From the NCBI GenBank assembly GCA_963820905.1, contig CAWGBU010000002.1:366144-430143 (forward strand): a stretch of 64,000 bases of DNA, written 5' to 3'. The DNA comes from an uncultured Acidobacteriota bacterium (lineage in GTDB: Bacteria > Acidobacteriota > Vicinamibacteria > Vicinamibacterales > 2-12-FULL-66-21). Made by a program: the position numbers and the translations under genes. The notes beneath the pieces were generated by a model that was given only the letters and a program-made list of their open reading frames with translations, had not been told where the DNA came from and did not search any database. Shown piece after piece: positions 16,234 through 36,500 of the stretch (position 1 is the first letter of the stretch; every line of letters begins with the position of its first letter).

Positions 16234-17163
16234 ATGGCGACCGGTCAGCTCGACGCGAAGATCGATGAGCTCTATCAGGGGCCGCCCGAGGCATTCACCG
16301 AGGCGCGCAACGCGCTGGCGAAGGAGTACGGGAAGGACGGGGCGGAGATCCGGCGCCTGCAGAAGCCTCCCGCGGCGGCGTGGGCGATCAACATGGTGTA
16401 CTGGCAGCGGCGCGCCGCGTACGACGCGCTGATGGCGGCAGCATCCTCACTGCGAGCGGCGCACACCGCCGTGCTCGCCGGGAAGCGCGCCGACCTGCGC
16501 GCCGCAGGAAAGGCCCACGAGGACGCGTTCGAGGCGTTCCTCAAGACCGCGCTCGCGCTGCTCGCAGCCGCGGGGCAGCCCGCCAGCGACGGGACGAAGC
16601 AGGCGATCGCGAATACGCTGCGCGCGCTGCCCTCGTCGAGCGAACGTCCGGGACGGCTCTCGCAGACGCTCCAGCCTGGAGGCTTCGAGCTCCTGGCCGG
16701 CCTTCCTGCGGGCGGCGCGGTTCAGCGTCCGCCCAAACCGTCTCCGTCTCCTCGACCCGCTCCCGCGTCGCGCGCAACACCGGCAGCAGAGTCGCGCGCT
16801 GAACAGGCGGAGCACGCCAAGGCGATCGCCAGGGCGAAGGACGCGGCCGCCGAAGCAGCGCGAGCCGAGAAGGCCGCGGATCAGAACGCGCGCCGCGAAG
16901 AGTTCGAGGCCGCGCGCGCCGCGCGCGACTCGGAGCGCGCCGAACGGTCCCTCGCGGAAGCGCGCGCCGCGCTCGACGCGGCGCAGCTGGCTGTCGACGA
17001 TGCCCAGGAAGCGGCGACTGCGGCGCTGAGAAAGAAAGAGGCCGCGGGCCGCCGGGTCCGCGAGAGCGCCGACGCACTTGCGCGTGCGCGCGTGAAGACG
17101 CAGACCGCGCAGGCCGAGCTCGCGCGCGTCGACGGTACCTCCGCGCGGAGACGAGGCCGATAA
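16234..17163 (+). CDS. Hypothetical Ala/Arg/Glu-rich protein with a probable coiled-coil C-terminus
   Basis: Uninterrupted 309-aa ORF with consistent codon usage. No recognisable domain. Confidence 0.4.
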   Translation: MATGQLDAKIDELYQGPPEAFTEARNALAKEYGKDGAEIRRLQKPPAAAWAINMVYWQRRAAYDALMAAASSLRAAHTAVLAGKRADLRAAGKAHEDAFEAFLKTALALLAAAGQPASDGTKQAIANTLRALPSSSERPGRLSQTLQPGGFELLAGLPAGGAVQRPPKPSPSPRPAPASRATPAAESRAEQAEHAKAIARAKDAAAEAARAEKAADQNARREEFEAARAARDSERAERSLAEARAALDAAQLAVDDAQEAATAALRKKEAAGRRVRESADALARARVKTQTAQAELARVDGTSARRRGR

Positions 17164-17168
17164 GATCC

Positions 17169-17492
17169 TCAGCCCGCGATCTTCTTCTCCAGCCTGCACA
17201 CGAAGAACACGTACATCGCAGGGATCAGCAGGCCGATGTGGACCGCGTTGAGTGAAACCGCGGAAACCATCCGCCCCCACACGAGCAGCACGGCCCCCGC
17301 GATCACCGACGCGACCCAGACGTTCCACTTGTCGGTCGATGCCAGCGCCACGGCCGGCGCCGCGATCCCCAGCGCGACGAGAGCCTGCGCCTGACGTCCG
17401 GCCTGCAGCAGACCGGAATCGAGCGCCTGCAGTCCGCCAACCACCACCGTCAACATCGCCCAGAGCAGTCTGTTGGTCATCATGCGAACCAC
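17169..17492 (-). CDS. Small membrane protein, unknown function
   Basis: 107 aa with 3 predicted TM helices. Confidence 0.35.
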   Translation of the reverse strand: MVRMMTNRLLWAMLTVVVGGLQALDSGLLQAGRQAQALVALGIAAPAVALASTDKWNVWVASVIAGAVLLVWGRMVSAVSLNAVHIGLLIPAMYVFFVCRLEKKIAG

Positions 17493-17567
17493 TCTGGCAG
17501 AGCGTGGACGGCGCGATCGGCGCCGGACGATGAGCGGTCAAATTGGCTGATGAATGGCGGAAAAGGC

Positions 17568-18335
17568 TCAGCCGAGCGCCTGCCGTACGTCTGCCGCGCG
17601 CCGCCGGCTCACGTGCACGCTGACGCCTCCGGCGAGCGTCAGCGTCGCCGATCCGTCGCCGTTGCTGACGATGCCCTGCACGTGCTCGAGATTGACGAGA
17701 TCCGAACGGCTCACGCGCACGAACGTCGCGCCCAGCCGCTCCTCCAGCTCTCCAAGCGTGTAGTCCGCGACTGGCTGCTCGGTGCGCGTGTGCGCGTGCG
17801 TGAGGCCGTCCGCTGACGTGAACCTGATCACGTCGCGCACCGCGAGCAGCCGGTGCCCCGCGCCATGGCGAACGAGGATCCGCGCCGGACGCACGCGCTC
17901 GTGCGCGAGCGCGGATCCCATCTTCTCGAGCGGCGCGCCGTGCCAGAGCCCCGCGCGCTCGAGCGTCGCGAGCCGGATCCGTGCGCGCTCGAGGGCCTGC
18001 GACAGGCGCTCCCTGCTGACCGGCTTCACCACGTAGTCGAGGGCCTGGTGTTCGAACGCCTGCAGCGCGTACTCGTGATACGCCGTCTGGAAGATGACGA
18101 GCGGCCGCGGATCGGGCAGATGGCGCACGACGTCGAGCCCGTCGACTTCGGGCATCGCGATGTCGAGAAGGATCACGTCGGGCTGCCGTTCCTTCACGAG
18201 CTCCAGCGCGGTCATGCCATCGGGCGCTTCGCCGACGATCTCCACGCGCGATTCCTCGTGCGCGCCGATCTCCTCCAGCATCGACGCCAGGCGCCGCCTC
18301 GCGTGCGCCTCGTCGTCCACGATGAGGACCTTCAT
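17568..18335 (-). CDS. LytR/AlgR-family response regulator (REC plus LytTR DNA-binding domain)
   Basis: MKVLIVDDE...ILLDIAMPEVDGLDVV is the REC domain. A C-terminal LytTR region follows. The start overlaps the kinase stop. Confidence 0.85.
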   Translation of the reverse strand: MKVLIVDDEAHARRRLASMLEEIGAHEESRVEIVGEAPDGMTALELVKERQPDVILLDIAMPEVDGLDVVRHLPDPRPLVIFQTAYHEYALQAFEHQALDYVVKPVSRERLSQALERARIRLATLERAGLWHGAPLEKMGSALAHERVRPARILVRHGAGHRLLAVRDVIRFTSADGLTHAHTRTEQPVADYTLGELEERLGATFVRVSRSDLVNLEHVQGIVSNGDGSATLTLAGGVSVHVSRRRAADVRQALG

Positions 18336-19423
18336 GGCGTCGCCGACGGAATCGTCAGCGTGACGTGCGCGCCGTCTGCGCCGGATGCGATCTCGAGGCT
18401 CGCCCGCTCTCCATACAACGCGTGAAGGCGTTCCCGCAGGTTTCCCAGGCCCGTTCCTTCGGACCACTTCACCGGGAAGCCCGCGCCGTCGTCGTCGACG
18501 CGCACGGTGAGCATCGCTCCGCTCTTGACGGTGATTCGAATGGTTCCACCCTCGAGGCGCGCGCCGAGGCCATGGCGAAGCGCGTTCTCGACCAGAGGCT
18601 GGAGCACGAGCGGAGGCAGCGCGTACGGGATCGCTCGCGAATCGACGTCCCAGATCACGTGAAGGCGATCTCCCAGGCGCTCCTGTTCGAGGCTCAGGTA
18701 GGCGCGGACATATTCGATCTCGTCGCCGACGGTGCCGCCGCTCCCGGCGGATCGCTGCAGCGTCCGCCGCAGGACGTCCGAGAGATTCTCGACGACGCGC
18801 TCGGCGGCCGACGGGTTCGAGCGGACGACCGCGGCGACCGTGTTGAGGGCGTTGAAGAGGAAGTGCGGATTCATGCGGGCCTGCAGCGCCGCAAGCTGAG
18901 CCGCGGACGCACGGCTCCGCGCGTCCGCCGCGAGCGCCGCCTGCTCGGTCGCATGCTGGTAGAGCGTGCGCGCCGAGCCCGTGACGGTCCTGGCGGCAAA
19001 GAGGAGCATGGCCGTGTAGGCAAGCAGCGCCACGACGGCGAGAAACAGCTCCGCGCCGAGCATCGCGCGGACGACCACGAGCGCAGCGGCGGCGGCGAGC
19101 GCCACGCCGGACGCAAAGCCAAGCGCGGGCAGCGCGATCAGCACCTGCTCGAGCGCCACGGCGTCTTCTGCAGTACGGCGCGGGTGCCGATTCGCGCTGT
19201 CGCCAATGGTCCGCTGCAGGGTATGCGCGGTGCCAAGCAGCGCCACGCCCGACACGCCAAAGAACGTACTCAGGAATTCCGCGACGCCGCCCGCCCCGGC
19301 GGCATTCCTGCTGTCCCACAGCTGGAGGATGACCATGCATGCCCAGAATGCAGCCATCCATCGGATTTGACGACGGATATCCGGGCTTGCGTACGTAACC
19401 GCGTCACGAACGATTGGCCACAT
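18332..19423 (-). CDS. LytS/YehU-type sensor histidine kinase
   Basis: A multi-TM N-terminus is followed by the His_kinase box NPHFLFNALNTV and HATPase_c motifs (GTGLGNLRERL). The start was chosen at MWPIV (ATG reverse complement at 19421-19423). Confidence 0.8.
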   Translation of the reverse strand: MWPIVRDAVTYASPDIRRQIRWMAAFWACMVILQLWDSRNAAGAGGVAEFLSTFFGVSGVALLGTAHTLQRTIGDSANRHPRRTAEDAVALEQVLIALPALGFASGVALAAAAALVVVRAMLGAELFLAVVALLAYTAMLLFAARTVTGSARTLYQHATEQAALAADARSRASAAQLAALQARMNPHFLFNALNTVAAVVRSNPSAAERVVENLSDVLRRTLQRSAGSGGTVGDEIEYVRAYLSLEQERLGDRLHVIWDVDSRAIPYALPPLVLQPLVENALRHGLGARLEGGTIRITVKSGAMLTVRVDDDGAGFPVKWSEGTGLGNLRERLHALYGERASLEIASGADGAHVTLTIPSATP

Positions 19424-19573
19424 CGCCGACAAGATACGGTAAAAACGGGCCAACCATAGCAAAAACCACAGGAAACACGCGAATTCCGTGGTTGGACGGC
19501 TGTGCAGGGGCCCGGCCGGGAAGTCGGCACAAGGCTTGAAACAGAGTCTTAGAAGACCTCGGCCATAGCGCAA

Positions 19574-20503
19574 ATGCCCCAGAAAACTGGAGTCACGATA
19601 CTCAACTCGAACATGCCTCGGACTCTAGACGAGCTGCGCGACTGGATCAGGGCCAATCTCAATATCGATCTGCAGGTGGAGCTCGATCTGCTGTCGGCCG
19701 TCGACTCGGTGCTCAGCCGGCAGCGGCAGCTCGTCGAGGAGTCGAAGCGCGACGCGATCCAGGCGCTCTCGGAGGGGTTCACGACCAAACTCGACAAGCT
19801 CCAGAGCCAGCTCACGGAGAAGGAGGCGACCGTCAGCAACATCGCGCGGTATTTCGAGGAGGTCGTCGCGGAGCTGACCGAGAAATCGCATCGCGATCCG
19901 AAGACCAAGCTCCTGAACTTCAACTGGTTCATGGAGCGGGTCGAGTCGTACCTCGCCGTCGAGCAGCGCGCCCGCTGGTGCAGCGTGGGCGTCGTGGACA
20001 TCACGAGCTTCAAGCGCTACAACGACACGCTCGGTCATGCCGTCGGCGATCTGATCATCGAGCGCGTCGCGCAGATCCTGTCGGACCAGATCCGCTCGGC
20101 CGACTTCCTCGCCGTGGAGCGCACGAACGACGCGCGCGACCTGCACGCCCGCTTCGGCGGCGACGAGTTCTGCTTCCTGATCCCGCAGCTGCCCGGCTGC
20201 GTGGAGGCGAAGGAGATCGCCGAGCGCTTCAAGCAGGCCGTCGAGCGTCACGACTGGGCGAACGAGGACGAACGGCTCACCGATCACCCCGTCAAGGTCG
20301 ACGTCGGCGTCGTCTGCCTCCGGCTCGGGCCGATCGCCGAGCGCCGCGGCGCCGCGCGGCAGCTCGCGGCGGACCTCATTCAGAGCGCGGACATGCTGAT
20401 GTACCAGGCGAAGAGCCGGCAGTCGGAGTCGGTCTACGCCACCGCCGTCGCCGTCCGCGACGGGAAACTCGTCGACATAACCGGCACGGGCATCAGGGGT
20501 TAG
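19574..20503 (+). CDS. Diguanylate cyclase (GGDEF domain) with an N-terminal coiled coil
   Basis: RFGGDEFCFL active-site motif. The start may instead be M14 (19613). Confidence 0.8.
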   Translation: MPQKTGVTILNSNMPRTLDELRDWIRANLNIDLQVELDLLSAVDSVLSRQRQLVEESKRDAIQALSEGFTTKLDKLQSQLTEKEATVSNIARYFEEVVAELTEKSHRDPKTKLLNFNWFMERVESYLAVEQRARWCSVGVVDITSFKRYNDTLGHAVGDLIIERVAQILSDQIRSADFLAVERTNDARDLHARFGGDEFCFLIPQLPGCVEAKEIAERFKQAVERHDWANEDERLTDHPVKVDVGVVCLRLGPIAERRGAARQLAADLIQSADMLMYQAKSRQSESVYATAVAVRDGKLVDITGTGIRG

Positions 20504-20617
20504 ATTCCCGCCATTTGCCCGCGTTCCTGAGCGGGTGCTAGAATTCCCATTTGGCCGATCGGCGTCGGAGGTGAGGGAGGCGACTCCCTTGTCTTCGAGC
20601 TGTGTTCCTTCCTCAGT

Positions 20618-20693
20618 GGTGGGTGTAGCTCAGTGGTAGAGCGCCTGACTGTGGCTCAGGAAGTCGCGGGTTCAATTCCCGTCATCCACCCCA
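20618..20693 (+). tRNA. tRNA-His (anticodon GTG)
   Basis: GGTGGGTGTAGCTCAGTGGTAGAGCGCCTGACTGTGGCTCAGGAAGTCGCGGGTTCAATTCCCGTCATCCACCCCA. It has the extra 5' G(-1) typical of tRNA-His, a CTGTGGC anticodon loop and an encoded CCA. Confidence 0.9.
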
Positions 20694-20756
20694 ATTCACA
20701 AAACCCCAACAATTCGCTGGCGGTACGACGTGGAACCGACGTCACCTGTCCGGCCA

Positions 20757-21587
20757 CTACGCGGTCACCTGCTGCCGGCGCCGCAGCACCTCGTCGAGCA
20801 CGCTCGGGCGTGACTGATGAGCGTGATGTTCGAGAAAATCGATCACGTGCCGACGGCAGCGGTGGTACTCGGGATGTGCCAGCACCGCTGAGCGGCGGCG
20901 CGGGCGCGGGAAGGGCACCACCAGCGACTCGCCGACGGTCGCTTCGGGGCCATCCGTCATGAGCAAGAGGCGATCGGCCAGGTAGAGTGCCTCGTCCACA
21001 TCGTGGGTGACCATCACCACGGTCTTGTCCGACTCCTCCCACACCCGAAGCAGGATGTCCTGCAGCTCGAACCGGGTCAGCGAGTCGAGCTGAGAAAACG
21101 GCTCGTCTAGGAGGAGGAACCGCGGCTCGAGCGACAGCGCCCGCGCCAGCGACACGCACTGCTGCGTCCCGAGGGAGACGTGCGCAGGCAGCTCGCCCGA
21201 CACATCGTCCACCCCGGCCATCGCGAGATAGCGATCCGCGGCGTCGCGCTGCTCGCGCGCGCCGATGTCGCGTCGCTGCGCGGCTGCGAGCAGCACGTTG
21301 TCGCGCACAGTCAGCCACGGCAGCAGGCAGGGCGATTGAAAGACCATGGCGCGCTCGGCGCCAGGTCCGATCACTTGTGTCCCGTCGATCACGACGCCGC
21401 CGTAGGTGGCGCGCTCGAGCCCGGCAATCATCGAGAGGACGGTCGACTTGCCGCAGCCGGAGTGGCCGAGCATTGCGACGAATTCTCCAGCGCGAACCTC
21501 GGCGTTGATGTCGCGCACGGCGACGAACGGACCCGACGGCGTGTCGAAGACCTTGGTCAGTCCGGTCAGCTCGAGCGGCGCCCTCAT
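20757..21587 (-). CDS. ABC transporter ATP-binding protein (NitT/TauT family, NrtD/CmpD-like)
   Basis: Walker A GHSGCGKST, the signature, and Walker B LLLDEPFSQLD. Confidence 0.85.
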   Translation of the reverse strand: MRAPLELTGLTKVFDTPSGPFVAVRDINAEVRAGEFVAMLGHSGCGKSTVLSMIAGLERATYGGVVIDGTQVIGPGAERAMVFQSPCLLPWLTVRDNVLLAAAQRRDIGAREQRDAADRYLAMAGVDDVSGELPAHVSLGTQQCVSLARALSLEPRFLLLDEPFSQLDSLTRFELQDILLRVWEESDKTVVMVTHDVDEALYLADRLLLMTDGPEATVGESLVVPFPRPRRRSAVLAHPEYHRCRRHVIDFLEHHAHQSRPSVLDEVLRRRQQVTA

Positions 21588-22441
21588 CGCGACTCCTCCG
21601 TCGCCAGCTCGATCGACGTCACGGCGTCCGCGTCCTGTCGCGGCTGACCGCGTCGAATGCGGCCGCCAATCGCCGCGGTCAGCGTCGCGATCACGTGCGC
21701 CCGCACGTGCGTCGCATCCTCTTCGTAGGCGAGCTGCGACAGGCTGCGCGGCCGCGACAACCGGACGCGAATCGGCGCGCCGAGCGTGGCCGGTGGTCCG
21801 GGCAGCATCGGAACGATCCAGTCGGACAACAGAATGGCCTCCTCGACGCTGTTGGTGATCATCACCGTCGTGACGGGGCGCTCGGCTGATGAACAGAGCC
21901 GCACCAGATCCTGCTGCAGGGTCTCGCGGGTCAGAGCGTCGAGGGCGCCAAACGGCTCATCCAGGAACAGCAACTCGGGGTTCGTGGCAAACGCGCGAGC
22001 GATCGCGACGCGCTGCCGCATGCCGCCGGAAAGCTGCCCCGGCCGACGGTGCATGGCGTTGCCAAGACCAACCTGTTCGAGCGCGCGCCGCGACTGCTCG
22101 AGCTGCGCCTCGCGATTGAGCAGCGGACACGCCGCGCGCACTGCCAGTCGAACGTTCTCGAGCGCGGTGAACCACGGCAACAGCGAGTAGTTCTGAAACA
22201 CGACGCCGGCGTCCTGCCGCACGTCGCGCACCGGCTCCCCGCCAATCACCACCGAGCCGCTATCCGGGGTGGTCAGGCCGGCGAGAATGCTGAGCAGCGT
22301 CGTCTTGCCGCTCCCCATCGCGCCGACGATGGAGGTGAACTCGCCACGCTCGACCGCGAAGGACACGTCGCGCAGCACCGGCCTGACGCCGGCGGCCGTC
22401 GCGAACGACTTCGAGACGCCGGAGACTTCGATGAACGCCAT
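21584..22441 (-). CDS. ABC transporter ATP-binding protein (NitT/TauT family), second ATPase
   Basis: The start was chosen at MAFIEVSGVSKSF (ATG reverse complement at 22439-22441), 6 nt after the permease stop. Walker A GAMGSGKTT, LSGGMRQRVAIARA, LLFLDEPFGALD. Confidence 0.8.
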   Translation of the reverse strand: MAFIEVSGVSKSFATAAGVRPVLRDVSFAVERGEFTSIVGAMGSGKTTLLSILAGLTTPDSGSVVIGGEPVRDVRQDAGVVFQNYSLLPWFTALENVRLAVRAACPLLNREAQLEQSRRALEQVGLGNAMHRRPGQLSGGMRQRVAIARAFATNPELLFLDEPFGALDALTRETLQQDLVRLCSSAERPVTTVMITNSVEEAILLSDWIVPMLPGPPATLGAPIRVRLSRPRSLSQLAYEEDATHVRAHVIATLTAAIGGRIRRGQPRQDADAVTSIELATEESR

Positions 22442-22446
22442 CGCGC

Positions 22447-23208
22447 CTATGCCGCCCGCAGCCTGGCTTCGGCAAGCCCCATCAACCGGTCGAGCACGAA
22501 GCCGATGACGCCGATGGTGATGATGGCCAGCAGGATGTGCGCGTAAATCAGGCTGTTGTATTCCTGCCAGAGGAAGCCGCCGACGCCCGGTGTGCCGGTC
22601 AGCATCTCGCTGGCGACGATCACGAGCCACGCAATGCCGAGGCTCAAACGGTAGCCGGTGAACATGTAGGGTAACGTCGCCGGCACGATGATCTTGAGGA
22701 ACGTCGTCGTGCGGGAGAGCCGGAGGACTTTGGCCACGTTCCAGTAGTCCTGCGGGATCGCGCGGACACCCATCATGGTGTTGATGATGGTCGGCCACAT
22801 CGAGCACACGGCGATGGCAAAGAGCGCCGCGGGTTCGGACTTCTGGAACAGGACGAGCCCCAGCGGCAGCCACGCCAGCGGCGAGATGGGCCGCAACACC
22901 TGCATGAGGGGATCGAACATCCGTGTCAGGAGCGGCGACACGCCGAACAGAAAGCCAACCGGCGTGCCGATGACGGCGCCGAGCAGGAATCCCTGCGCGA
23001 CGCGCACCAGGCTGTAGTACGCCAGCAGCGCGATGCCCTGGTCCGTCTCACCGCGCTTGACGAACGGCTCCAGAACGTAGACCTTGCTCTCCTCCCACGT
23101 CCGCGCCGGGGATGGCAAATCGGGAACCTGGACGCTCGCCGCCCACCAGACGAGTACCGCTAACACGACGCCCACCATGGGCACTAGCAGGTGCAGGACA
23201 CGTTTCAT
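22447..23208 (-). CDS. ABC transporter permease (NrtB/SsuC-like, BPD_transp_1)
   Basis: The start was chosen at MKRVLHLLVPMVGVV. Six predicted TM helices with the EAA-like loop. Confidence 0.8.
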   Translation of the reverse strand: MKRVLHLLVPMVGVVLAVLVWWAASVQVPDLPSPARTWEESKVYVLEPFVKRGETDQGIALLAYYSLVRVAQGFLLGAVIGTPVGFLFGVSPLLTRMFDPLMQVLRPISPLAWLPLGLVLFQKSEPAALFAIAVCSMWPTIINTMMGVRAIPQDYWNVAKVLRLSRTTTFLKIIVPATLPYMFTGYRLSLGIAWLVIVASEMLTGTPGVGGFLWQEYNSLIYAHILLAIITIGVIGFVLDRLMGLAEARLRAA

Positions 23209-23222
23209 TCGTTGACCCTCGA

Positions 23223-24497
23223 CTAAGTCAGGCTGTGAACCGCGAACGACTTGGCGTACGCCTCCGGGTCTTTCCCGTCGAACGCGCCGTCGAACAACGT
23301 GATCTTCTGCTCTTCGGCGACTTTGGACGCGACGCCGAGCTCCTTCATGGCCTCGAGATACAGGTCCGATCGCATCACGCGCTTGCTGACGCCGGCGTAG
23401 TCCGGCGCCGCCTTCGCCATGCCCCAGCGACGGAACTGCGTGAGCCACCACTTCGCATAGATCTGGTGCGGGTAGTTGCAGCTGCGGTTCGAGAAGATCA
23501 TGTAGGACGGGTCCTGCTCCACCCTGCCGTCGCCGTACCTGTACTTCCCCATCAGGCGTTCGAGGATCGTCGAGGGCGGACAGTTGATGTACGAGGGACG
23601 GGCGATGACCTCGGCGAACTTCGCGCGATTCTCCATCTTGTCGAGATCAACGCTCGCCAGGTGCAGGGCCTTCAGGATGGCCTTGACGGTCTTCGGATTC
23701 TTGAGCGCGAACTCCTCCGTGAACGCGCACACCTTTTCCGGGTGGTCCTTCCACAACTGCTGCGTGGTGACTGCGGTAAAGCCAATGCCGTCCTCGATTG
23801 CGCGGTTGTTCCACGGCTCACCGACGCAGAAGCCGTCCATCTTGTCCACTCGCATGTTGGCGACCATCTGCGGTGGCGGAATGGTGATGAGGTTGACGTC
23901 CTTATCCGGATTGATGCCGCCGGATGCGAGCCAGTAGCGCAGCCACATCGCGTGCGTCCCGGGCGGAAACGTCATCGCGAACGTCAGCGGGTCCCCGGCC
24001 GCCTTCGCCTTCTCGGCCAACGGCTTGATCTGGGACGGAGTCCTGGCTCCGGCAGCCTTCAGCTTGTTGTTCAGGGTGATCGCCTGTCCGTTCCGGTTGA
24101 GCAGCCAGGGGATGACCATCGGCTTGACCGGCGACCCGGCAAGCCCCATGGTCGAAGCCAGCGGCATGCCGAGCAGCATGTGCGTCGCGTGGTTCTCGCC
24201 GAGCGTGAGCTTGTCGCGGATGACCGCCCACGAGGCTTCCTTTGAAACGATGGAATTGATGCCGAACTTCTTGAAGTAGCCGAGCTCGTGCGCCATCACG
24301 ATCGCCGCGCAGTCCGTCAGGGCAATGATGCCGAAGCGGACGTCGGGGTGTTCCGGCGCATCGGTCGCATACGCGGCACCGGCCCATCCTGCCGGCACAC
24401 TCGACATGAGCACTGCCGCAGTCGACGTGCTCGCCGATTTGAGGAACGTGCGTCTGGTCAGTCTCTTCGAGTTGTTTCGCATCTCACTCACTTTCAT
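23223..24497 (-). CDS. NrtA/CmpA-like periplasmic substrate-binding protein (nitrate/bicarbonate/cyanate type) with a Tat signal
   Basis: RRTFLKSASTSTAAVL twin-arginine signal; NMT1/NrtA-like fold, about 424 aa. The ATG overlaps the stop of the upstream porin gene. Confidence 0.8.
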   Translation of the reverse strand: MKVSEMRNNSKRLTRRTFLKSASTSTAAVLMSSVPAGWAGAAYATDAPEHPDVRFGIIALTDCAAIVMAHELGYFKKFGINSIVSKEASWAVIRDKLTLGENHATHMLLGMPLASTMGLAGSPVKPMVIPWLLNRNGQAITLNNKLKAAGARTPSQIKPLAEKAKAAGDPLTFAMTFPPGTHAMWLRYWLASGGINPDKDVNLITIPPPQMVANMRVDKMDGFCVGEPWNNRAIEDGIGFTAVTTQQLWKDHPEKVCAFTEEFALKNPKTVKAILKALHLASVDLDKMENRAKFAEVIARPSYINCPPSTILERLMGKYRYGDGRVEQDPSYMIFSNRSCNYPHQIYAKWWLTQFRRWGMAKAAPDYAGVSKRVMRSDLYLEAMKELGVASKVAEEQKITLFDGAFDGKDPEAYAKSFAVHSLT

Positions 24498-25891
24498 TTA
24501 TCCGCAAGGAACACATAGGTCACCATCACGAACGGACCGGTGTACGACTTGCCGGGCGTCGCCTCTTTGAGAAAGGGACCAGCGAACAGGTGCGCGTAGC
24601 CCGCTGCCAATCCGAGGTACGGCGTCAAGGGCCGCGAGACCTGCACATCGATCTCCTGCCCGACTCGTGTGCTTGCGGCACCAGCGGGCACGCGGGCCAG
24701 CGGCGCGCCGCTGGCCGCATACAGCGCATCCCGAGCCTCGGCGAGCCAGTACGAGTGATAGCCAACGGTGATCGGTGTGGCCTTGATCGGCGTGATGTCG
24801 AAGCCGATGCGGAGGTCGTGGATGTTGCGCCAGCCGACCTGATCCGCCAGGCCGTACTTGTCGTGCGCGGTTGGATACAGCTGATCGAACGTGCCGCGGA
24901 TGCCGTCGGCCGGGTCGGCATCGCCCGACGCATAGTTGTACTCCGCGGAGACACGCGGCGCCCACGCGCCGGTCAGCGTCTCGCGTATCTGCCAGTGGCC
25001 GGCCCAGGCGCGAATCGAGTCTGGCCCAAGCGAGCCGCGCTGGAAGGCCGATTCCACGTTGTAATCGAGACGGGCTGGAAGGCGACCCGCGAGGCGAGCG
25101 CCGGTCGTCACCTGCTGCAGCGAGTCGAGAGCGCCGGACTCCGCGCGCTGATTGACGTCTCGCCGCCAGAACAGGTACGGCTCGGTGGTGGCGCGCGGGA
25201 CGACGCGCGGCGTGCTGACATAGGCGCCGGCGAAGCGGTTACCGTTGCCGCTCTTGTCGAACTCGTCCTCCAGGATCCGGACGACGGAGGCGGCGAACAG
25301 ATCGATTTGCGCCGGCTTGGTCTTGAGCGTCAGCCGCGCGGCGTCGAAGGAGCGCCCGGCGTTGAGCCAATTGGCGTGGCCGACCAGGCGCTGATCGCCG
25401 AAGGCGATCTCCTGCCTGCCCAGCCGCGCGGTCAGCGGCGCCTTCGCGCTGCCCAGATCCACGAACGCCTGGCGAAGATCGAACGCTGCTTTGAAGGGCG
25501 CCGCAGTGGCGCCAACGCTCTTGTCGCCGACGCGGGCATCCTGGACCTGCACGGTTGCGCCAATCGACGTGCCGGTCAGCGTCGCATTGAAGCGAAGCCG
25601 CGAGAGGTAGTAGGTGTCGTCGCGGGCCTCGACGAAGCCGGAGTTGGCAAAGCCCTCGACGCGCTCGCGGAACTCGGCTCGCACGCGCAGCCAGGCCGGC
25701 ATCACTTCGTTCGCACGATTGGGGAACGGCGGCCGCCGAACCGGAACGGTCGGCGCAGCCTGAGCGGCGGGGGCCGGCGATTGTGGCGATTGTTCGGTCG
25801 CAGGCGCCGGCGGTGATGCCGGCGGCAGTTGAGCGAACAGCGGGTCGGGCCACGCCAACGAAGCCCCCAGGCATACGGCCCAGCAGACCAC
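24494..25891 (-). CDS. Outer-membrane porin of the alginate-export (AlgE-like) family; start uncertain
   Basis: Signal-peptide-like VVCWAVCLGASLAWPDPLFAQ follows the candidate GTG at 25891, but the ORF is open up to 26107. The beta-rich C-terminus ends ...VTYVFLADK and resembles the Alginate_exp domain. It is translationally coupled to nrtA-like. Confidence 0.5.
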   Translation of the reverse strand: MVCWAVCLGASLAWPDPLFAQLPPASPPAPATEQSPQSPAPAAQAAPTVPVRRPPFPNRANEVMPAWLRVRAEFRERVEGFANSGFVEARDDTYYLSRLRFNATLTGTSIGATVQVQDARVGDKSVGATAAPFKAAFDLRQAFVDLGSAKAPLTARLGRQEIAFGDQRLVGHANWLNAGRSFDAARLTLKTKPAQIDLFAASVVRILEDEFDKSGNGNRFAGAYVSTPRVVPRATTEPYLFWRRDVNQRAESGALDSLQQVTTGARLAGRLPARLDYNVESAFQRGSLGPDSIRAWAGHWQIRETLTGAWAPRVSAEYNYASGDADPADGIRGTFDQLYPTAHDKYGLADQVGWRNIHDLRIGFDITPIKATPITVGYHSYWLAEARDALYAASGAPLARVPAGAASTRVGQEIDVQVSRPLTPYLGLAAGYAHLFAGPFLKEATPGKSYTGPFVMVTYVFLADK

Positions 25892-26575
25892 GCGCGAAAC
25901 AGTGTTAGACGGACAACGCACGCGAACGCTCCCTGATGTCGGAATCGATCGCCGGCCGTGGCGCGGACCGGGTCGGTCCGCGGAGACGCGCCGTCTCGAT
26001 CGGATTGGTGTCGTGATGCCGGCAGGGGCGAGCGCGGCGTCTGGGCCGCTGCCTCGACCGCCAGCAAAGCCCATTCCTGCGGCCGCGTGCACCGGCAGCG
26101 AACGCAAAGACGCCTGATACGGGCGCGTTTCCCGCGCGAATCACATTCCGGCGTCGTGAGCGCCCAGCCAACAAAAGTGTTCCCGAAAAACATTCGCGAA
26201 CAAACGTGTTCAGGTCCGGGGTGTCCACGGCGCGCGGCAGCGGCGGCGGAGTCGTCGGCGCGCCGCGACCGTGCGGCCGGTTCACCGGTACCCGCTGTCA
26301 CTCCTACACAATTGTCATGTTTTGTTTTTGTGCCGACATTAACGTTGGCCCCAGTCCCTTGTCGATCGCTTCGATCTTGTGTATCTTCAAACCCGCGGTT
26401 CTTCCAGGCGTGCCGCCGGCTCCTTGTCGCAGCCGGCTTCGACAGCGCGCCGCTTCAAGAATCTGCACGCGCTCCCCGTCGAGCAACGTCGAACAACGTA
26501 GACGCTGCGCCGCGCAGAACATCCGCTTCACAGACTCGTGGCGGCTGGTTTGCGTCTTGCGTACGGGAGCATGCG

Positions 26576-27609
26576 GTGTCGCTGCCTCTTGTAAAACGAG
26601 CTGCCGAGGACGGCGTGACGTCGGTGCCGACGCCGTCGCCGGAGACGACTACGGTCGAGGATCGTGTTCGTGCGATCTGGCAGGAGCGCTCCAGCAGGCC
26701 CGGCCGCGGCGCGCCGACTGCGAACTTCGACGGCAGGCGCGTGCTGACGCTCGAGAGCCGGCGCGCGCCGGAGCTTGCGCTGCTGGTGATGAACTACGGC
26801 GGCTGGCCCGTGGTGGCACCGTCGGTTCGCGAAGTGCCGCTCGCGGCGAACCAGCAGGCACTGACGTTTGCCAACGACGTCATCCGCGGACGCTTCGGCA
26901 TCGTCATTCTGATGACTGGTGTCGGCGTGAGACTGCTGATGAGAGTCATCGAGCCGGAGCTCGGCCGCGAGCGATTCCTCGAGGCGCTGACGCGCACGAA
27001 AATCGTCGCCCGTGGACCCAAGACCGTGGCCGCCCTGCGCGAGCTTGGCCTGACGGCGTGGGCAACGGTGCCAACCCCGAACACGTGGCGTGAGTTGCTG
27101 GCCACGATCGACGGCCGCGCCGACGAGGCGCCGCTCGATCGTCAGCAGGTGGCGCTCCAGGAATACGGGCTGCCAATCCGGACCTCCTGCAGGCGCTGTC
27201 TGCCCGTGGTGCGCACGTCACGTCGGTGCCGGTGTATCGATGGGCAATGCCGGCAGATGTCGAGCCGCTGCGCGACGCCGTGCGCGCCATCGTCCGAAAC
27301 GAGATTGACGTCGTCATCCTGACCGCGAGCATTCAGCTCGTCCACTTGCTGCAGGTGGCCCGCGACATGGGCCTGGAAGCCGCGATGCGCGGCGGGCTGG
27401 AACGAGTGGTCCTCGCGTCGATCGGCCCGATGACATCCGAGGAACTTCGTCATCACGGGCTGCCTATCGACTACGAGCCGTCCCACCCCAAGATGGGCTT
27501 CCTCGTCAAAGAGCTCGCCGAGAACTGCCGGACCTTGCTCGACGCGAAGCGACGTCCCGAAACCACGCCATCCACGGAAGCGGAGCGATGCACAGAAGCG
27601 ACGACCTAG
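26576..27609 (+). pseudogene. Uroporphyrinogen-III synthase (HemD/HEM4)-like domain protein, frameshifted near 27170
   Basis: From the GTG at 26576: ...RVLTLESRRAPELALLVMNYGGWPVVAPSV...LQEYGLP. The frame then changes by +1 at about 27170 and continues NPDLLQALSARGAHVTSVPVYRWAMPADVEPLRDAV...ASIGPMTSEELRHHGLPIDYEP. The two-half HemD-like pattern is recognisable, but the family assignment is moderate. Confidence 0.5.
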
Positions 27610-28334
27610 CGATCAGCGGCAGCGCAAATGCGAACGAGGTCATCGGCCGCGAATCGATCGGCTTTCTGCATGAGATCGGTAGCCGTTTTGCGGCCGCCGA
27701 TTCCCTCCAGACTGTCCTGAGCCGGGTCGTCAACTTCGTCTCGACCGTGGTCCGCTGCGACTCGTGTTTCATCTACGTCCTGGAGGACGATGCGCTGGTG
27801 CTGCGGGCGTCCAAGGATCCTCACACCGATATCGTCGATCGGCTCAAGCTGCGCGTTGGCCAGGGCATCACCGGTTGGGTTGCCGAGCATCGTCAACCGG
27901 TCGCTGTCGGTTGTCACGCCTTCGAAGATCCGCGCTTTCAAGTCTTCAACGATTTGCCGGAGGACAAGTACGAGGCGTTCCTGTCGGTGCCAGTGCTGTG
28001 CCGCGGACGTCTCGTCGCCGTCATCAACCTGCAGCATCGGTTTCCACACGAGCACAGCTGGGCCGAGATCCAGCTCGTCGCCACCATTGGGTTTCTCGTC
28101 GGCGCCGAGATCGCGCTGGCACGGCTCGAGTCTGAGAACAGCCAGTTGTCGGAGCGGCTCGAAACGCGTAAGGTCCTGGACCGCGCGAAGGGGATCCTGC
28201 AACGGGATCTCGGCATCAGCGAGGAAGAGGCCTACCTCACCATTCAGCGCCAAAGCCGGCAGCGGCGGCGATTGAAGCGCGAGATTGCGGAAGCGATCCT
28301 GCTGGCCGACGACCTGCGTCGCGGTCAGCGTTAG
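27588..28334 (+). CDS. GAF-ANTAR RNA-binding antiterminator regulator
   Basis: N-terminal GAF domain. C-terminal ANTAR motif: RKVLDRAKGILQRDLGISEEEAYLTIQRQSRQRRRLKREIAEAIL. Confidence 0.8.
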   Translation: MHRSDDLAISGSANANEVIGRESIGFLHEIGSRFAAADSLQTVLSRVVNFVSTVVRCDSCFIYVLEDDALVLRASKDPHTDIVDRLKLRVGQGITGWVAEHRQPVAVGCHAFEDPRFQVFNDLPEDKYEAFLSVPVLCRGRLVAVINLQHRFPHEHSWAEIQLVATIGFLVGAEIALARLESENSQLSERLETRKVLDRAKGILQRDLGISEEEAYLTIQRQSRQRRRLKREIAEAILLADDLRRGQR

Positions 28335-28474
28335 CTCGAGCAGGCGCGGACGGCCGCGCGCGCCGCGCTCATCACTGCATGAACAGCAAACCAAAAGCTA
28401 GCCAACTCGATGGGAGACTGCTCACGGGACTATCGCGACTACTCGTCGGCAAACAAAACGAACGCTCGGTGCAC

Positions 28475-28490
28475 GTGAGCGTACGCTCAC
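28475..28490. promoter_or_regulatory. Perfect 16-bp palindrome GTGAGCGTACGCTCAC in a lower-GC intergenic region
   Basis: Read directly. Its function is unknown; it is a candidate operator. Confidence 0.3.
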
Positions 28491-33076: not shown

Positions 33077-34606
33077 ATGGCGGTAGAGCCAACCATGGAC
33101 CGCCACGCCACAACCCGGGATGCGATCGCGCTCCTCCTCAGCATCGGCGTGCTTGGTCTGGCAGTAGCCCTTCTCAGGATGCTGCCCGATGTCAGCGCGA
33201 CGACCGTCGCGCTGGCGCTGCTGCTGGTTGTCCTCGGCACCGCAACCAACGCACGCCTGGCCGTCGCGATCGTCGTATCCGTTGTGGCAATGCTGGCGTT
33301 CAATTTCTTCTTTCTTCCTCCCATTGGAACGTTGACCATTGCGAACCCGCAGAACTGGGTGGCGTTGTTCGCGTTTCTGACCGTGTCCGTCATCGCCAGC
33401 AATCTCTCGGCCGCTGCCAGGGACCGGGAGCGTGAGGCCATCGCTCGCGGCAACGAAGTCACGCGCTTGTTCGACCTGACACGAGATGTCCTGCTGACCA
33501 CGGAGACCGCCACGGCCATGGACATCATCGCTCGCCAGGTCGCGCGCCGTTTCGAGCTGACCACGGTGGCGATCGCCCTTCCCGCCGACCATGGATGGCG
33601 CGTGTATCAGGGGGGGAGCAGCGACGTGGCCATCGACGAGGCCGTCCTGAATACTGCGCTCGCGAAGGCGCGAGGGACGCTGGAGTTCGACGCGCACCAG
33701 CGCGCCTATGGCGGACACGTGCAGATCGGCGACGCCCAGACCGGCCTGAAAATCGTGCCGCTGCGCCACGGTGTGAAGGCCATGGGCCTGCTCGCGGCGG
33801 GCGCGTCGGATCTCGATATCGGCACGCTGGATGCGCTTGGCGGCGTCGTCGCGATTGCCATCGAGCGCACGCAGTTTCTCGGCGAGCGTGACGCCGCGGA
33901 GCGCGTTCGGCAGAAGGCGGATCTTGCAGCGACGCTTCTGGCGTCCTTGAGCCACGACCTCAGGACGCCGCTGACGGCGGCCCGGGTCGCCGTCGAGAAC
34001 CTTCGCGGCGAGCTGACGGCTGACGAACGCAAGGCGCAGACCGACCTCGCGGCTGCGGAGCTCGGCCGCCTGTCGCGTCTCTTCCAGGACATCCTGGACA
34101 TGGCGCGAGTGGATGCCTCCGCGATCCTGATCGAGCGGCAGTGGGTCACGCCGGCGGAAGTCATCGATGCCGCCATGGCCCACGTGCGTCACACGCTCAC
34201 CGGGCGAACGGTCAACGTGGATGCCGATGGCGAGATGGTCGTTGAAATCGATCCCCGGCTGGCGTCCGGGGCGCTCTCCCACCTGCTCGAGAACGCCGCG
34301 CAATATTCGCCGGCCGACCGCAGCATCGACGTCGTCGGCCGCGCCGAGCCCGACGGGCTGCGCGTGTCAGTCGTCGACCAAGGACCGGGGTTGGATCCAG
34401 GCGAGCTCGATCACCTCTTCGAGCGGTTCTATCGCGGTCGGGCTGCGCGGCAACTGTCGCCAGGAACGGGAATGGGACTCGCGATCAGTCGTGGGCTGCT
34501 GGCCGCCGCCGGGGGCCGGGTCTGGGCCGAGAACGTGCCTGGCGCGGGCGCCAGGTTCTCGATGGTCGTGCCCGGGGCCATCCGCCGCGTCGTGGAGGAG
34601 CGCTGA
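33077..34606 (+). CDS. kdpD: Sensor histidine kinase matching the C-terminal half of KdpD (4-TM, GAF-like, HisKA, HATPase_c); the N-terminal KdpD/Usp domains are absent
   Basis: KdpD-type TM region (AFNFFFLPPIGTLTIANPQNW), H-box LSHDLRTPLTA, and N/G boxes (LLENAAQYSP, GTGMGLAISRGL). Confidence 0.85.
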   Translation: MAVEPTMDRHATTRDAIALLLSIGVLGLAVALLRMLPDVSATTVALALLLVVLGTATNARLAVAIVVSVVAMLAFNFFFLPPIGTLTIANPQNWVALFAFLTVSVIASNLSAAARDREREAIARGNEVTRLFDLTRDVLLTTETATAMDIIARQVARRFELTTVAIALPADHGWRVYQGGSSDVAIDEAVLNTALAKARGTLEFDAHQRAYGGHVQIGDAQTGLKIVPLRHGVKAMGLLAAGASDLDIGTLDALGGVVAIAIERTQFLGERDAAERVRQKADLAATLLASLSHDLRTPLTAARVAVENLRGELTADERKAQTDLAAAELGRLSRLFQDILDMARVDASAILIERQWVTPAEVIDAAMAHVRHTLTGRTVNVDADGEMVVEIDPRLASGALSHLLENAAQYSPADRSIDVVGRAEPDGLRVSVVDQGPGLDPGELDHLFERFYRGRAARQLSPGTGMGLAISRGLLAAAGGRVWAENVPGAGARFSMVVPGAIRRVVEER

Positions 34607-35287
34607 GTGGCCGACCGCATCCTCGTCGTCGACGACGAGCCGAACATCCTGGCGACCATCACGCCGCTGCTCTGCGGCCGCGGGTACGACGTGCTGACCG
34701 CGATGACCGGACACGCGGCACTCGAAGCCGTGCACCGGGACGCGCCGGACCTCGTTATCCTGGACCTCGGACTGCCGGACCTCGACGGGGTCGAGGTCTG
34801 CACTCGGATTCGCGAGAGCCGCACCACCCCGATCGTCGTGTTGTCGGCGCGCGGCGGCGAGAACGACAAGGTACGGGCGCTCGATGCCGGCGCCGACGAC
34901 TACGTCACCAAGCCGTTCGGAACGGAGGAGCTCCTCGCGCGCGTGCGCGTGGCGCTGAGACGGATCGACACGGCACAGTCGAACGAGCCGATCGTGCGCG
35001 GCAAGCTGGTGATCGACCGGGAGCGCTTCCGGGTGCTCACCGACGGCAAGGAGGTCAGGCTCACGCCGAAGGAATTCGAGCTGCTGACCTATCTGGCGCA
35101 GCGGCCGGGGCGTGTCGTCACCCATCGCGCGATTCTGCGGGCCATCTGGGGGCCACAAGCGCTGAACCAGCCAGAACACCTGCGGGTCCTCGTCGGGTCG
35201 CTTCGACGGAAGATCGAACCCAATCCCTCTGCGCCGCAGTACATCCTCACGGAGCCATGGGTTGGCTATCGATTCATGGACGCGTGA
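34607..35287 (+). CDS. kdpE: OmpR-family response regulator KdpE
   Basis: The GTG start comes immediately after the kinase stop. REC (ILVVDDEPNIL...LDLGLPDLDG) plus the winged-helix Trans_reg_C (LTPKEFELLTYLAQRPGRVVTHRAIL...VGYRF). Confidence 0.85.
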   Translation: MADRILVVDDEPNILATITPLLCGRGYDVLTAMTGHAALEAVHRDAPDLVILDLGLPDLDGVEVCTRIRESRTTPIVVLSARGGENDKVRALDAGADDYVTKPFGTEELLARVRVALRRIDTAQSNEPIVRGKLVIDRERFRVLTDGKEVRLTPKEFELLTYLAQRPGRVVTHRAILRAIWGPQALNQPEHLRVLVGSLRRKIEPNPSAPQYILTEPWVGYRFMDA

Positions 35288-35328
35288 CCGTGCCGGGGCG
35301 CGTGGCGAGACTTATCGCGCTGCCTGCG

Positions 35329-36477
35329 TCACGCGCCCGGCTCACCAAGCGGCACGACTTGCACGGCAGCGTCTCGAACCTCTTCCAGAAATCGGTTCAA
35401 GGTCGATCCCTTCAACAGAATCTCCCATCGCGTACGAGCGCTCTGCCCGAAGATGACATGGGTAATGCCTTCGCGCTTGGCAAAGGCGATCAGACCGTCA
35501 GCGGGCTTGTCGGCTTTCACGCGCACGATCGTGGCTCCGAGATCCTTCGCCAGGGCGATGTTACGCTCCAACGCCTGCTGATCCGTGCGCTTGATGTGGC
35601 CGGGTGCCTCTCGCGGTGTTTCGACGTAAACCGCGTACCAGTGCGCGCCCAGCCGGCCGGCGATGCGCGCCCCGGCGCGAAGCACCCGCGGAGCATCGGC
35701 GCTCGAGCTCACGCACACCATCACTCGTTCAGGAATCAGCGCCGGCTCGAGACCCTCGCGCTGGCGATGCGACGCCGCTTTCTCGCCGATCTCGTCGGCA
35801 ACCGCACGCAAGGCCAGCTCGCGCAGCGTCGAGAGATTCGTCTCCCTGAAGAAATTCGTCAGCGCCTGCTCGACCTTTTCCGGCTTGTACACCTTTCCCT
35901 GTCGTAACCGGGTCTGGAGCTCCTGCACGGTCACGTCCACGTTGACGACTTCGTCGGCGCGATCGAGAAACGTGTCGGGCACGGTCTCGCGCACGCGGAC
36001 GCCGGTCACACGGCTCACCGCGTCGTTCAGCGTCTCCAGGTGCTGAATGTTGACGGCTGTCAGGACACCGATGCCGGCGTCGAGCAGGTCGAGCACGTCC
36101 TGATATCGCTTCTCGTGTCGTCCGCCCGGCGCGTTCGTGTGCGCCAGCTCGTCGACCACGGTGAGCTGCGGCTTCCTGGCAAGGATCGCCTCCAGATCCA
36201 TCTCTTCGAGGATCACGCCCCGGTACTCGACGCGCCGCCTCGGGATGATCGGCAGATCCTGCAGCCGCGCTTCCGTATCGGCGCGGCCGTGCGTCTCGAC
36301 GAAGCCGACCACGACATCGACGCCCTCCAGACGGAAGGCATGGGCGTCTTCGATCATTGAATAGGTCTTGCCAACGCCGGGGGCAGCACCGATGTAGATG
36401 CGGAGGCGCGCACGCTCTGCGGTCTGCAGCTTCGCCAATGCCTGCTCGCCCGTGATGCGGGTGGGATCCGACACCAA
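35329..36477 (-). CDS. Stand-alone KdpD N-terminal sensor domain protein (KdpD domain with P-loop, plus a Usp domain)
   Basis: RIYIGAAPGVGKTYSMIEDAHAFRLEGVDVVVGFVETHGRADTEA...VDELAHTN matches the KdpD N-terminal domain. A Usp-like C-terminus follows. There are no TM or kinase domains. Confidence 0.8.
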   Translation of the reverse strand: MVSDPTRITGEQALAKLQTAERARLRIYIGAAPGVGKTYSMIEDAHAFRLEGVDVVVGFVETHGRADTEARLQDLPIIPRRRVEYRGVILEEMDLEAILARKPQLTVVDELAHTNAPGGRHEKRYQDVLDLLDAGIGVLTAVNIQHLETLNDAVSRVTGVRVRETVPDTFLDRADEVVNVDVTVQELQTRLRQGKVYKPEKVEQALTNFFRETNLSTLRELALRAVADEIGEKAASHRQREGLEPALIPERVMVCVSSSADAPRVLRAGARIAGRLGAHWYAVYVETPREAPGHIKRTDQQALERNIALAKDLGATIVRVKADKPADGLIAFAKREGITHVIFGQSARTRWEILLKGSTLNRFLEEVRDAAVQVVPLGEPGA

Positions 36478-36500
36478 GGCATCGTAGCGCGAGCGTAGCG

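Follow-up and report, generated by a model that had tools for sequence, protein, structure and literature searches.

The 64-kb window analysed here, a continuous stretch of contig CAWGBU010000002.1 (all positions below are window coordinates), carries an ABC transporter operon of the nitrate type that is led by an outer-membrane porin gene. Divergent from it stand a gene for a uroporphyrinogen-III synthase family protein (HemD) and a gene for an RNA-binding regulator composed of a GAF and an ANTAR domain. Most of this locus is ordinary; its unusual part is a strictly conserved variant of the hairpin motif bound by ANTAR proteins, which is present in both leader RNAs. The G+C content of the window is 62–71%, and the host is a Vicinamibacteria-type acidobacterium. 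The HemD sequence, once repaired for a one-nucleotide deletion described below, has thousands of relatives, and its closest genomes are metagenome-assembled genomes of Acidobacteriota (Vicinamibacteraceae, “gp6”), many of which come from one long-read soil survey. The reading that we favor, with moderate confidence, is that the region represents the uptake half of a nitrate/nitrite assimilation cluster of Vicinamibacteria-type acidobacteria, which would be controlled by a σ54 promoter, by hexaloops in the leader RNA and by the GAF-ANTAR protein.

The porin-nrtABCD operon and its relatives

All seven genes lie where a preliminary description of this DNA had placed them, and each assignment is supported by hidden Markov models (HMMs) from Pfam and NCBIfam (Table 1). 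The porin gene and nrtABCD form one transcription unit. As read off the sequence, the porin and nrtA genes share an ATGA overlap, as do nrtC and nrtD, and gaps of 14 nt and 5 nt separate nrtA from nrtB and nrtB from nrtC, respectively, so that the junctions are 4-nt overlaps or gaps of at most 14 nt, as had been claimed. The porin-led arrangement is real and recurs in every relative examined, with the same porin gene preceding nrtA in all of them. The porin start was placed 7 nt behind an AGGGAG Shine-Dalgarno sequence, at a GTG whose homolog is used in all relatives, and this replaces the start at 25892 implied earlier. The N-terminus that results is signal-peptide-like and ends in AWPDPLFA, with Q following.

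Table 1 Genes and regulatory features of the porin-nrtABCD and hemD-ANTAR locus
Feature	Position	Strand	Basis or remarks
NrtD-type ABC ATPase, 276 aa	20757–21587	−	PF00005; best NCBIfam model TIGR01184 ntrCD, 271.1 bits
NrtC-type ABC ATPase, 285 aa	21584–22441	−	PF00005; best NCBIfam model TIGR01184 ntrCD, 230.8 bits
NrtB permease, 253 aa	22447–23208	−	TIGR01183 ntrB, 240.5 bits vs cutoff 209.05; BPD_transp_1
NrtA-like periplasmic nitrate-binding protein	23223–24497	−	PF13379 NMT1_2, E = 7.7e-90; Tat signal RRTFLK
AlgE / Alginate_exp outer-membrane porin, 475 aa from GTG 25921	24494–25921	−	PF13372, E = 1.5e-69
Dual hexaloop element	26018–26048	−	P1 CGGC[CCAGAC]GCCG (26048–26035), linker CGCTC, P2 GCC[CCTGCC]GGC (26029–26018)
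σ54-like promoter GGAATGGGCTTTGCT (GG-N10-GC)	26063–26077	−	14–15 nt upstream of P1 in all relatives
Four ACA-N4-TGT palindromes	26170–26181, 26199–26210, 26305–26316, 26335–26346		Invariant alignment columns in relatives
σ70-like promoter candidate TTGTCG-N17-TATCTT, divergent (formerly nas) operon	26359–26387	+	TTG and GTGTATCT invariant in six loci
Single hexaloop hairpin H, GCTC[CCCGTC]GAGC, hemD-ANTAR (formerly nas) leader	26471–26484	+	Kept in every family locus
hemD (uroporphyrinogen-III synthase family), 1-nt deletion at 27175	26576–27609	+	HEM4 (PF02602) in two frames
GAF-ANTAR one-component RNA-binding regulator, 248 aa	27588–28334	+	ANTAR E = 1e-16; GAF E = 5e-15

The porin matches PF13372 with 235.2 bits against a gathering cutoff of 25.2, over profile positions 2–387 of 395; a phmmer search showed no relation of it to AlgE or any other solved structure. 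No alginate (alg) genes are found near the porin in any locus examined, its neighbors always being nrtABCD. Judging from the operon structure alone, it is reasonable to suppose that the porin serves as the outer-membrane entry channel for the anion that the ABC transporter imports.

Several observations bear on what this anion may be. The binding protein has NrtA (2G29) as its best match in the PDB (E = 4e-82), ahead of the bicarbonate binder CmpA at 2e-60, and models of taurine and sulfonate binders give negligible matches to it, which places it with NrtA, as had been proposed, and not with the binders of taurine or sulfonate. Nitrate in NrtA is hydrogen-bonded by Trp102, Gln155, His196, Gly240 and Lys269 (PMC13204499), and all five are aligned to identical residues of the window protein in the 2G29 alignment. 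The NrtB permease exceeds the curated TIGR01183 equivalog cutoff. Both ATPases stay under the TIGR01184 cutoff of 291.8 bits, though ntrCD is the best model for each, and NrtC is devoid of the C-terminal NrtA-like regulatory domain known from cyanobacterial NrtC. The five conserved ligands and the match to NrtA, combined with the nas/nirBD operon found in relatives (see below), make nitrate or nitrite the predicted substrate.

As homologs of nas or nir genes are absent from all 64 kb of the window, a nitrate role in the window genome rests on homology and on the relatives. One may therefore suppose that the transporter imports another anion of the NitT/TauT range (nitrite only, cyanate or bicarbonate) and that the locus is a remnant in decay which has ceased to take part in nitrate assimilation, the more so as the nas and nir genes were deleted at this very locus, frameshifts occur in hemD of the window and in nrtB and nrtC of the sister contig L001, and the ATPases score under the nitrate cutoff. 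We consider this quite improbable given (i) the retention of all five nitrate ligands of NrtA, K269 included, and the score of NrtB above its cutoff, (ii) the intactness of all five transport genes in the window, (iii) the condition of L003, which is likewise without nas/nir genes at the locus and has all genes intact at 80–92% identity, as expected under purifying selection, and (iv) the difference in frameshifts between two long-read assemblies that are 98.8% identical, a pattern that indel errors would produce.

The origin of the locus can be read from its relatives. Eight related loci (L006–L010, L084 and L086/L087) share one layout, in which the porin-nrt operon is divergent from a reductase operon whose ancestral order is Fer4_11 plus DmsC protein, molybdopterin oxidoreductase (nitrate reductase), NirB, NirD, HemD and GAF-ANTAR. 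The four reductase genes are missing in the window and in L001, L002 and L003. The entire intergenic region is homologous between the reductase-bearing and the reductase-less layouts, and window positions 26555–26635 encode AVSLPLVKRAAEDGVT. By tblastn (E = 2.9e-5) and manual alignment, this peptide corresponds to the start of the L008 Fer4/DmsC protein, AVSLPLLKRAADDGVT, and it runs in frame into SVPTP..DRVRAIW, the normal HemD N-terminus. About 25 codons of the first reductase gene are thus left, in one frame with hemD. This homology and this trace of the Fer4/DmsC gene show that the window locus is a deletion derivative: the four reductase genes have been deleted from a larger nas/nir cluster, and the former nas promoter, leader and first ~20 codons are now fused to hemD and drive it together with the ANTAR gene.

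The first gene of the reductase operon deserves a remark of its own. In the relatives it encodes a fused 4Fe-4S dicluster and DmsC-like membrane-anchor protein and stands before the gene of the molybdopterin subunit (L008 3444–7198; L084 2572–6311; L086 3134–6888). Such a protein is an unusual partner for an enzyme within an assimilatory nirBD cluster.

Conserved hairpins in the two leaders

The intergenic region between the divergent operons measures 654 nt (25922–26575) if GTG 26576 is the start of hemD. An alignment of eight leaders displays the sequence GGAA-N6-TTGCT, the ACA-N4-TGT palindromes and, 14–15 nt after TTGCT, an invariant block of 31–32 nt. According to RNAalifold, this block folds into two hairpins, P1 with the sequence CGGC[C-N-N-G-A-C]GCCG and a stem of 4 bp, and P2 with the sequence GCC[C-N-N-G-C-Y]GGC and a stem of 3 bp. 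The dual hairpin is the minimum-free-energy fold in five of six variants. The linker between P1 and P2 is 5 or 6 nt long, and both loops have 6 nt in 20 of 20 instances.

Among the 18 unique sequences of these 20 instances, no change occurs in the stems or at C1 and G4 of the loops; what varies is the linker, the flanks on either side and, within the loops, positions 2, 3 and 6. When the count is restricted to the eight unique sequences that were found by synteny alone, all nine variable columns are unpaired (hypergeometric P = 0.0017). With a covariance model, each locus gives exactly one hit to the element, in every case upstream of the porin gene; run over 37 sources (the window and 36 loci), the model (R1) gave no further copies above noise, e.g. 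upstream of nirB or cobA. A metagenome scan in which the stem positions were left free returned 120 stretches, ten of which are true members, all with the same stems and all upstream of porin-nrtA; the remaining 110, taken as a null set, never had both hairpins paired.

A third hairpin, H, lies on the strand opposite to that of the porin gene, about 90 nt downstream of the promoter candidate of the divergent operon. Its family sequence is GCTC[C-N-N-G-W-C]GAGC, in which C1, G4 and C6 of the loop are invariant and positions 2, 3 and 5 vary. P1, P2 and H have different stems (CGGC, GCC and GCUC), the same closing C-G pair and conserved loop positions 1 and 4. G4 is invariant in all three hairpins, also in the eight sequences found by synteny alone. 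Conservation at loop positions 1 and 4 is the hallmark of the ANTAR hexaloop, here with C replacing A. The motif as published comprises stems of at least 3 bp, ANNGNN loops and a short linker (PMC3369931), and the element agrees with the dual hexaloop definition in its two stem-loops of at least 3 bp, its hexaloops, its G4 and its linker within the range of ~5–12 nt.

A target of the canonical type was looked for separately. A scan for A1/G4 hairpin pairs found none in the leader with stems of at least 4 bp and a single one with stems of at least 3 bp, at 25980–25950, just before the Shine-Dalgarno sequence. About 22 such pairs occur by chance in the window, the loops are missing at the homologous position in relatives, and any A1/G4 pair occurs in only two of ten homologous intergenic regions, at non-homologous positions. 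We rejected this pair as a chance match. The proposal in the preliminary description that the leader holds an ANTAR target thus survives in part: an ANTAR-type target is plausible, and the canonical A1/G4 motif is a chance match. A scan of 19–30 kb with Rfam at E values up to 10 yielded only transfer RNA (tRNA), with no ANTAR-like family.

Other structures in this and comparable leaders were considered and set aside. A strong 9-bp hairpin at 25982–25962 was examined as a terminator; it has no U-tract and is lineage-specific, with no conservation even in the next-closest relative, L143. Sequestration of the Shine-Dalgarno sequence by the C-rich P2 region would require a complementarity that is window-specific and does not hold consistently from locus to locus. 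A second metagenome family with seeming covariation, GCAC[CTGGAC]GTGC, sits inside a protein-coding gene. The nirC-nirBD-hemD leaders of other Acidobacteriota contain no hexaloop family and have a different conserved promoter block, AAATTTCAATCGGATGCATCAATTCATTGCGTTTGTCA, upstream of nirB.

Both operons have a candidate promoter in the intergenic region (Table 1). On the porin side, GGAA-N6-TTGCT is invariant across 20 loci, its spacer and flanks being variable, and it is for this phylogenetic invariance, and not for the match in the window, that we assign it to the σ54 type. The 10 nt between its GG and GC dinucleotides are also what σ54 promoters, with elements like TGGCAC-N5-TTGC, have at this place. 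Reading GGAAC instead as the −35 element of an ECF-type promoter leaves no conserved −10 element at the right distance. The candidate on the divergent side was not called by a consensus promoter scanner. The four palindromes between the two promoters, conserved in all relatives, are candidate activator sites common to both and probably bind a nitrogen regulator; presumably, they fit none of the consensus sequences of NtrC, NifA, NtcA or CRP.

From the sequence, the GAF-ANTAR protein could be expected to bind the leader hairpins, but several findings weigh against this interpretation and against the control scheme as a whole. In P1, P2 and H alike, loop position 1 never deviates from C, although genetic evidence from the EutV and NasR systems shows a requirement for A there. 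No intrinsic terminator was found in the leader downstream of the promoter, and none overlaps P2. Between P2 and the Shine-Dalgarno sequence lie anywhere from 17 to ~100 nt, a stretch in which no part is conserved; some relatives have only 17–30 nt there. The stems never vary, and there is thus no true covariation. The folding energies are no better than those of shuffled controls. On the promoter side, the σ54 match in the window taken alone is not significant, with three mismatches to the 12-position consensus, and a GAFTGA-motif enhancer-binding protein is not encoded within the 64 kb.

Since the spacing between element and promoter is constant, a site that functions at the level of DNA would also fit. 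The invariant 31-nt block would then be contacted, as an operator or promoter-proximal element, by a DNA-binding regulator or the σ54 holoenzyme, and the GAF-ANTAR protein would act elsewhere. The fixed spacing of 14–15 nt from the −12 element, the conservation of sequence without compensatory changes in the stems, the lack of a terminator to antagonise, the unexceptional folding energy and an ACGCC direct repeat within the block all agree with this idea. It is, however, at odds with the length variation of +1 nt, which falls exactly in the predicted linker, and with the variable columns, all of which are unpaired. Furthermore, the three hairpins agree in loop signature and self-complementarity but not in a half-site, the reverse of what a common DNA-binding protein would need, and hairpin H, ~90 nt from its promoter, has no fixed promoter-proximal place. 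For these reasons, we regard a DNA site as unlikely and retain the hairpins as the candidate RNA target.

The GAF-ANTAR regulator, HemD and neighboring genes

The HMMs bear out the assignment of the regulator, the PF03861 match covering positions 2–54 of 54, and its gene indeed overlaps that of hemD, reaching over the repaired hemD stop (27607–27609) by 22 nt. The GAF-ANTAR protein is 80–94% identical across the clade, in which the porin is only 60–80% identical, and this high conservation parallels the invariance of the leader RNA block. Its gene is found beside the leader element wherever the contig extends far enough.

In the EutV–RNA complex, as seen in its crystal structure, the flipped-out G4 makes the only base-specific contact and all other contacts are to the backbone of the three closing pairs; the authors of that structure redefined the minimal ANTAR site as a single hexaloop (PMC8934654). 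The residues of EutV that contact G4, Arg142, Lys149, Glu160 and Tyr164, correspond to R194, K201, E212 and Y216 of the window protein, none of which changes in 13 family members with identities as low as 62%. The equivalent of Met172, which plugs the loop in EutV, is an invariant Arg224 in the acidobacterial protein. The GAF domain is closest to those of the PtsP and NifA types. The GAF domains of PtsP and NifA sense glutamine and 2-oxoglutarate, and this likeness would make a nitrogen-status signal as likely a ligand as nitrate itself.

HEM4 was confirmed in HemD by HMM, in two halves: profile positions 4–113 are matched in the frame of 25958–27322 and positions 146–230 in the frame of 27226–27609. 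Intact HemD relatives match positions 2–230 with E values of 1e-36 to 1e-42. The likely start is GTG 26576, which stands behind a GGGAG Shine-Dalgarno sequence; an alternative, GTG 26615, was chosen by the gene caller in the near-identical P0001. The frameshift noted in the preliminary description could be located by comparison with L001, which is 98.8% identical to window positions 16618–28488 and encodes an intact HemD (P0001, 331 aa, 99% identical): one A is missing at 27175 (CCAAAT to CCAAT). Seven single-base indels distinguish the two contigs. Three additional bases in L001 disrupt nrtB and nrtC, both intact in the window, and hemD and MacB genes are also split in another contig of the same survey. 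As different genes are broken in two near-identical long-read assemblies, the hemD frameshift is more likely an assembly error than a real mutation. Programmed frameshifting was rejected, the site being a plain loss from AAA to AA without slippery context.

The genomic neighborhood of hemD speaks to the function of its product. The cobA gene and/or cysG-N (the N-terminal siroheme-synthase module) stand directly beside hemD in ~40 of the 80 best acidobacterial loci. In ~15 of the 80, nirB is directly upstream of hemD, accompanied by nirD in all but one, and these include loci with no ANTAR gene nearby. A cobA-type methylase gene follows nrtD in L002 and L003. Thermus uroporphyrinogen-III synthase (3D8N) is the closest solved relative of HemD (E = 2e-12); the alignment is full-length, and TGVGVR, ARG-K and YR motifs are common to both proteins. 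In L086/L087, an Illumina assembly, hemD is internally deleted, with 93 residues left, and the adjoining GAF-ANTAR protein is intact and 89% identical to that of the window, so HemD is dispensable for the regulator.

Given this, HemD is most likely an enzyme of the siroheme branch that would supply uroporphyrinogen III for the siroheme cofactor of NirB, and not the sensor module that it had been suggested to be. A non-catalytic sensor or partner that controls the translationally coupled GAF-ANTAR protein, comparable to the HemD domain of NnaR or to NasS in its relation to NasT, is a distant alternative to which we give a low probability. Precedent exists in the HemD domain of NnaR, for which no HemD activity was found (PMC6277429). 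Moreover, in the window as in relatives, the ANTAR gene starts before hemD has ended, the coupling being constant in the clade; the protein shows a conservation that is unusual among HemD proteins (mean column identity 58%, many residues being invariant) and has an N-terminal extension of ~35 residues; and intact P0001 scores under the NCBIfam equivalog cutoffs (135 bits vs 273 for PRK07239 and 134 vs 233 for PRK05928.2-1). A sensor role fits poorly, however, with homologs of 50–57% identity across Acidobacteriota that have no ANTAR gene nearby and whose genes follow nirBD and/or adjoin cobA and cysG-N, which stand for the next two steps towards siroheme. The motifs shared with the proven Thermus enzyme and the reduction of HemD to a remnant beside an intact ANTAR protein likewise disfavor it, and a separate sensor is not needed, since GAF is itself a ligand-sensing domain. 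We thus continue to regard HemD as a siroheme-branch enzyme.

Some side observations concern these two genes. The annotation at JGI labels many GAF-ANTAR proteins “uroporphyrinogen-III synthase” (protein hits P0121–P0240), apparently by spill-over from the overlapping hemD. At 9619–10001 of L086/L087, an N-terminal fragment of hemD lies in one frame and the 93-aa C-terminal open reading frame in another, the flanking nirD being intact. Other Acidobacteriota (L027, L030, L044, L065, L067 and L074) have a nirC(FNT)-nirB-nirD-hemD cluster with convergent cobA and cysG-N, and in L044 a GAF-ANTAR gene lies 3.4 kb downstream of hemD.

Around the locus, a tRNA-His(GTG) gene (20619–20693, plus strand) lies 64 nt past the nrtD stop and is convergent with the operon. 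The density of single-nucleotide differences between the window and L001 peaks at 21000–23500 with up to 38 per 500 nt, compared to 1–7 in the flanks, and the proteins are still 97–99% identical, which hints that the tract was recombined or that the consensus of one assembly mixes strains. Right after the GAF-ANTAR gene, the window (from 28488 onward) and L001 (from 11877) lose all similarity: the former continues with DinB, VWA and Band_7 genes and the latter with STAS and TPR genes. This break is either the boundary of a strain-level rearrangement or insertion or an assembly join. Farther away, the sensor of a Kdp potassium-uptake cluster (33077–42247) is split: the plus strand carries the genes of a DUF4118-HisKA-HATPase kinase and of an OmpR-type regulator, and the minus strand carries a separate KdpD-N plus Usp gene (35329–36477), followed by KdpA and KdpB.

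A candidate control mechanism compared with known systems

Combining these observations, we propose the following model. The porin-nrt operon would be transcribed from the σ54-type promoter upon activation via the upstream ACA-N4-TGT sites, with a predicted start ~11 nt past TTGCT, 3–4 nt ahead of P1. The first ~35 nt of its RNA are predicted to fold into two hairpins of 3–4 bp with C-N-N-G-N-Y hexaloops that are 5–6 nt apart, and the divergent leader would add one more. The GAF-ANTAR protein, its GAF domain loaded with a nitrogen-status or a nitrate/nitrite ligand, would bind the loops via the flipped-out G4 and so let expression proceed. Candidate steps at which it could act are Rho-dependent or non-canonical termination, RNA stability and translation. 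In a more general and more tentative form, which we judge possible rather than probable, Acidobacteria would use a distinct class of ANTAR target, namely C1-N-N-G4 hexaloops that are closed by a C-G pair and located at the extreme 5′ end of a σ54 transcript with no terminator, and a GAF-ANTAR protein with Arg in place of the Met plug would control nitrate uptake and reduction not by the classical exchange of terminator and antiterminator but via, for instance, antagonism of Rho, RNA stabilisation or translational activation.

This arrangement resembles NasR/nasF of Klebsiella oxytoca and NasS-NasT of Azotobacter, Pseudomonas and Paracoccus in that genes of nitrate uptake and assimilation have that of an ANTAR protein next to them, the promoter of the target operon is of the σ54 type, and short hairpins in its leader have hexaloops whose fourth position is an essential G. 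It differs in the sensor, which is a GAF domain here, a NIT domain in NasR, and in NasT a REC domain assisted by the separate NrtA-like NasS; in the C1 that takes the place of A1; and in the location of the hairpins at the extreme 5′ end with no overlapping terminator.

The likeness to EutV and the eut motif of Enterococcus faecalis (PMC3369931, PMC8934654) consists of two hairpins of at least 3 bp, 6-nt loops, the invariant G4 and the retention of the G4-contacting residues, and the acidobacterial linker of 5–6 nt falls within the eut range of 5–12 nt (PMC3369931). Unlike in the EutV system, C1 stands for A1, Arg for the loop-plugging Met172, and no intrinsic terminator overlaps the hairpins. 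EutV is, furthermore, a phosphorylated response regulator, whereas the acidobacterial regulator is a one-component GAF protein.

The other components can be compared in the same way. The transporter shares with cyanobacterial NrtABCD (2G29) the build of a four-component ABC importer with a five-ligand binding protein, a TIGR01183 permease and two ATPases, but has a Tat signal instead of a lipoprotein anchor, an NrtC without regulatory domain and a porin gene at the head of its operon. The porin matches the AlgE family (Pseudomonas aeruginosa) over the whole length of PF13372; its gene, however, has no alginate genes nearby and is coupled translationally to nrtA, and its presumed substrate is a small anion and not a polymer. 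As in the case of NnaR of Streptomyces and Mycobacterium, a HEM4-fold protein is encoded with genes of nitrate/nitrite assimilation, but NnaR joins a HemD-like to an OmpR-type DNA-binding domain, whereas the acidobacterial HemD stands alone, shares synteny with siroheme genes and can be lost while the regulator stays.

ANTAR regulators are widespread, and to our knowledge the only understood examples are those controlled by REC, NIT or AmiC, with an RNA motif defined by A1 and G4. As of 2012, no GAF-ANTAR protein had been characterised, and the literature that we searched contains neither a nitrate system with a GAF-ANTAR protein nor an ANTAR target from Acidobacteria, nor does it assign PF13372 porins a role with nitrate. 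Two consequences concern the annotation of metagenomes. PF13372 serves as a marker of alginate export (algE) in soil metagenome studies (PMC7989815); as a PF13372 gene heads the nitrate-uptake operon here and in every relative, counts of this marker may in part report nitrate acquisition by Acidobacteria. In addition, many GAF-ANTAR proteins are mislabelled as uroporphyrinogen-III synthases in public metagenome annotation. With regard to the ANTAR family itself, if the requirement for A1 is not universal, covariance-model searches built on A1 would miss whole regulons in abundant soil phyla, and if ANTAR proteins can do without a terminator that overlaps their target, the mechanism accepted at present would have to be extended.

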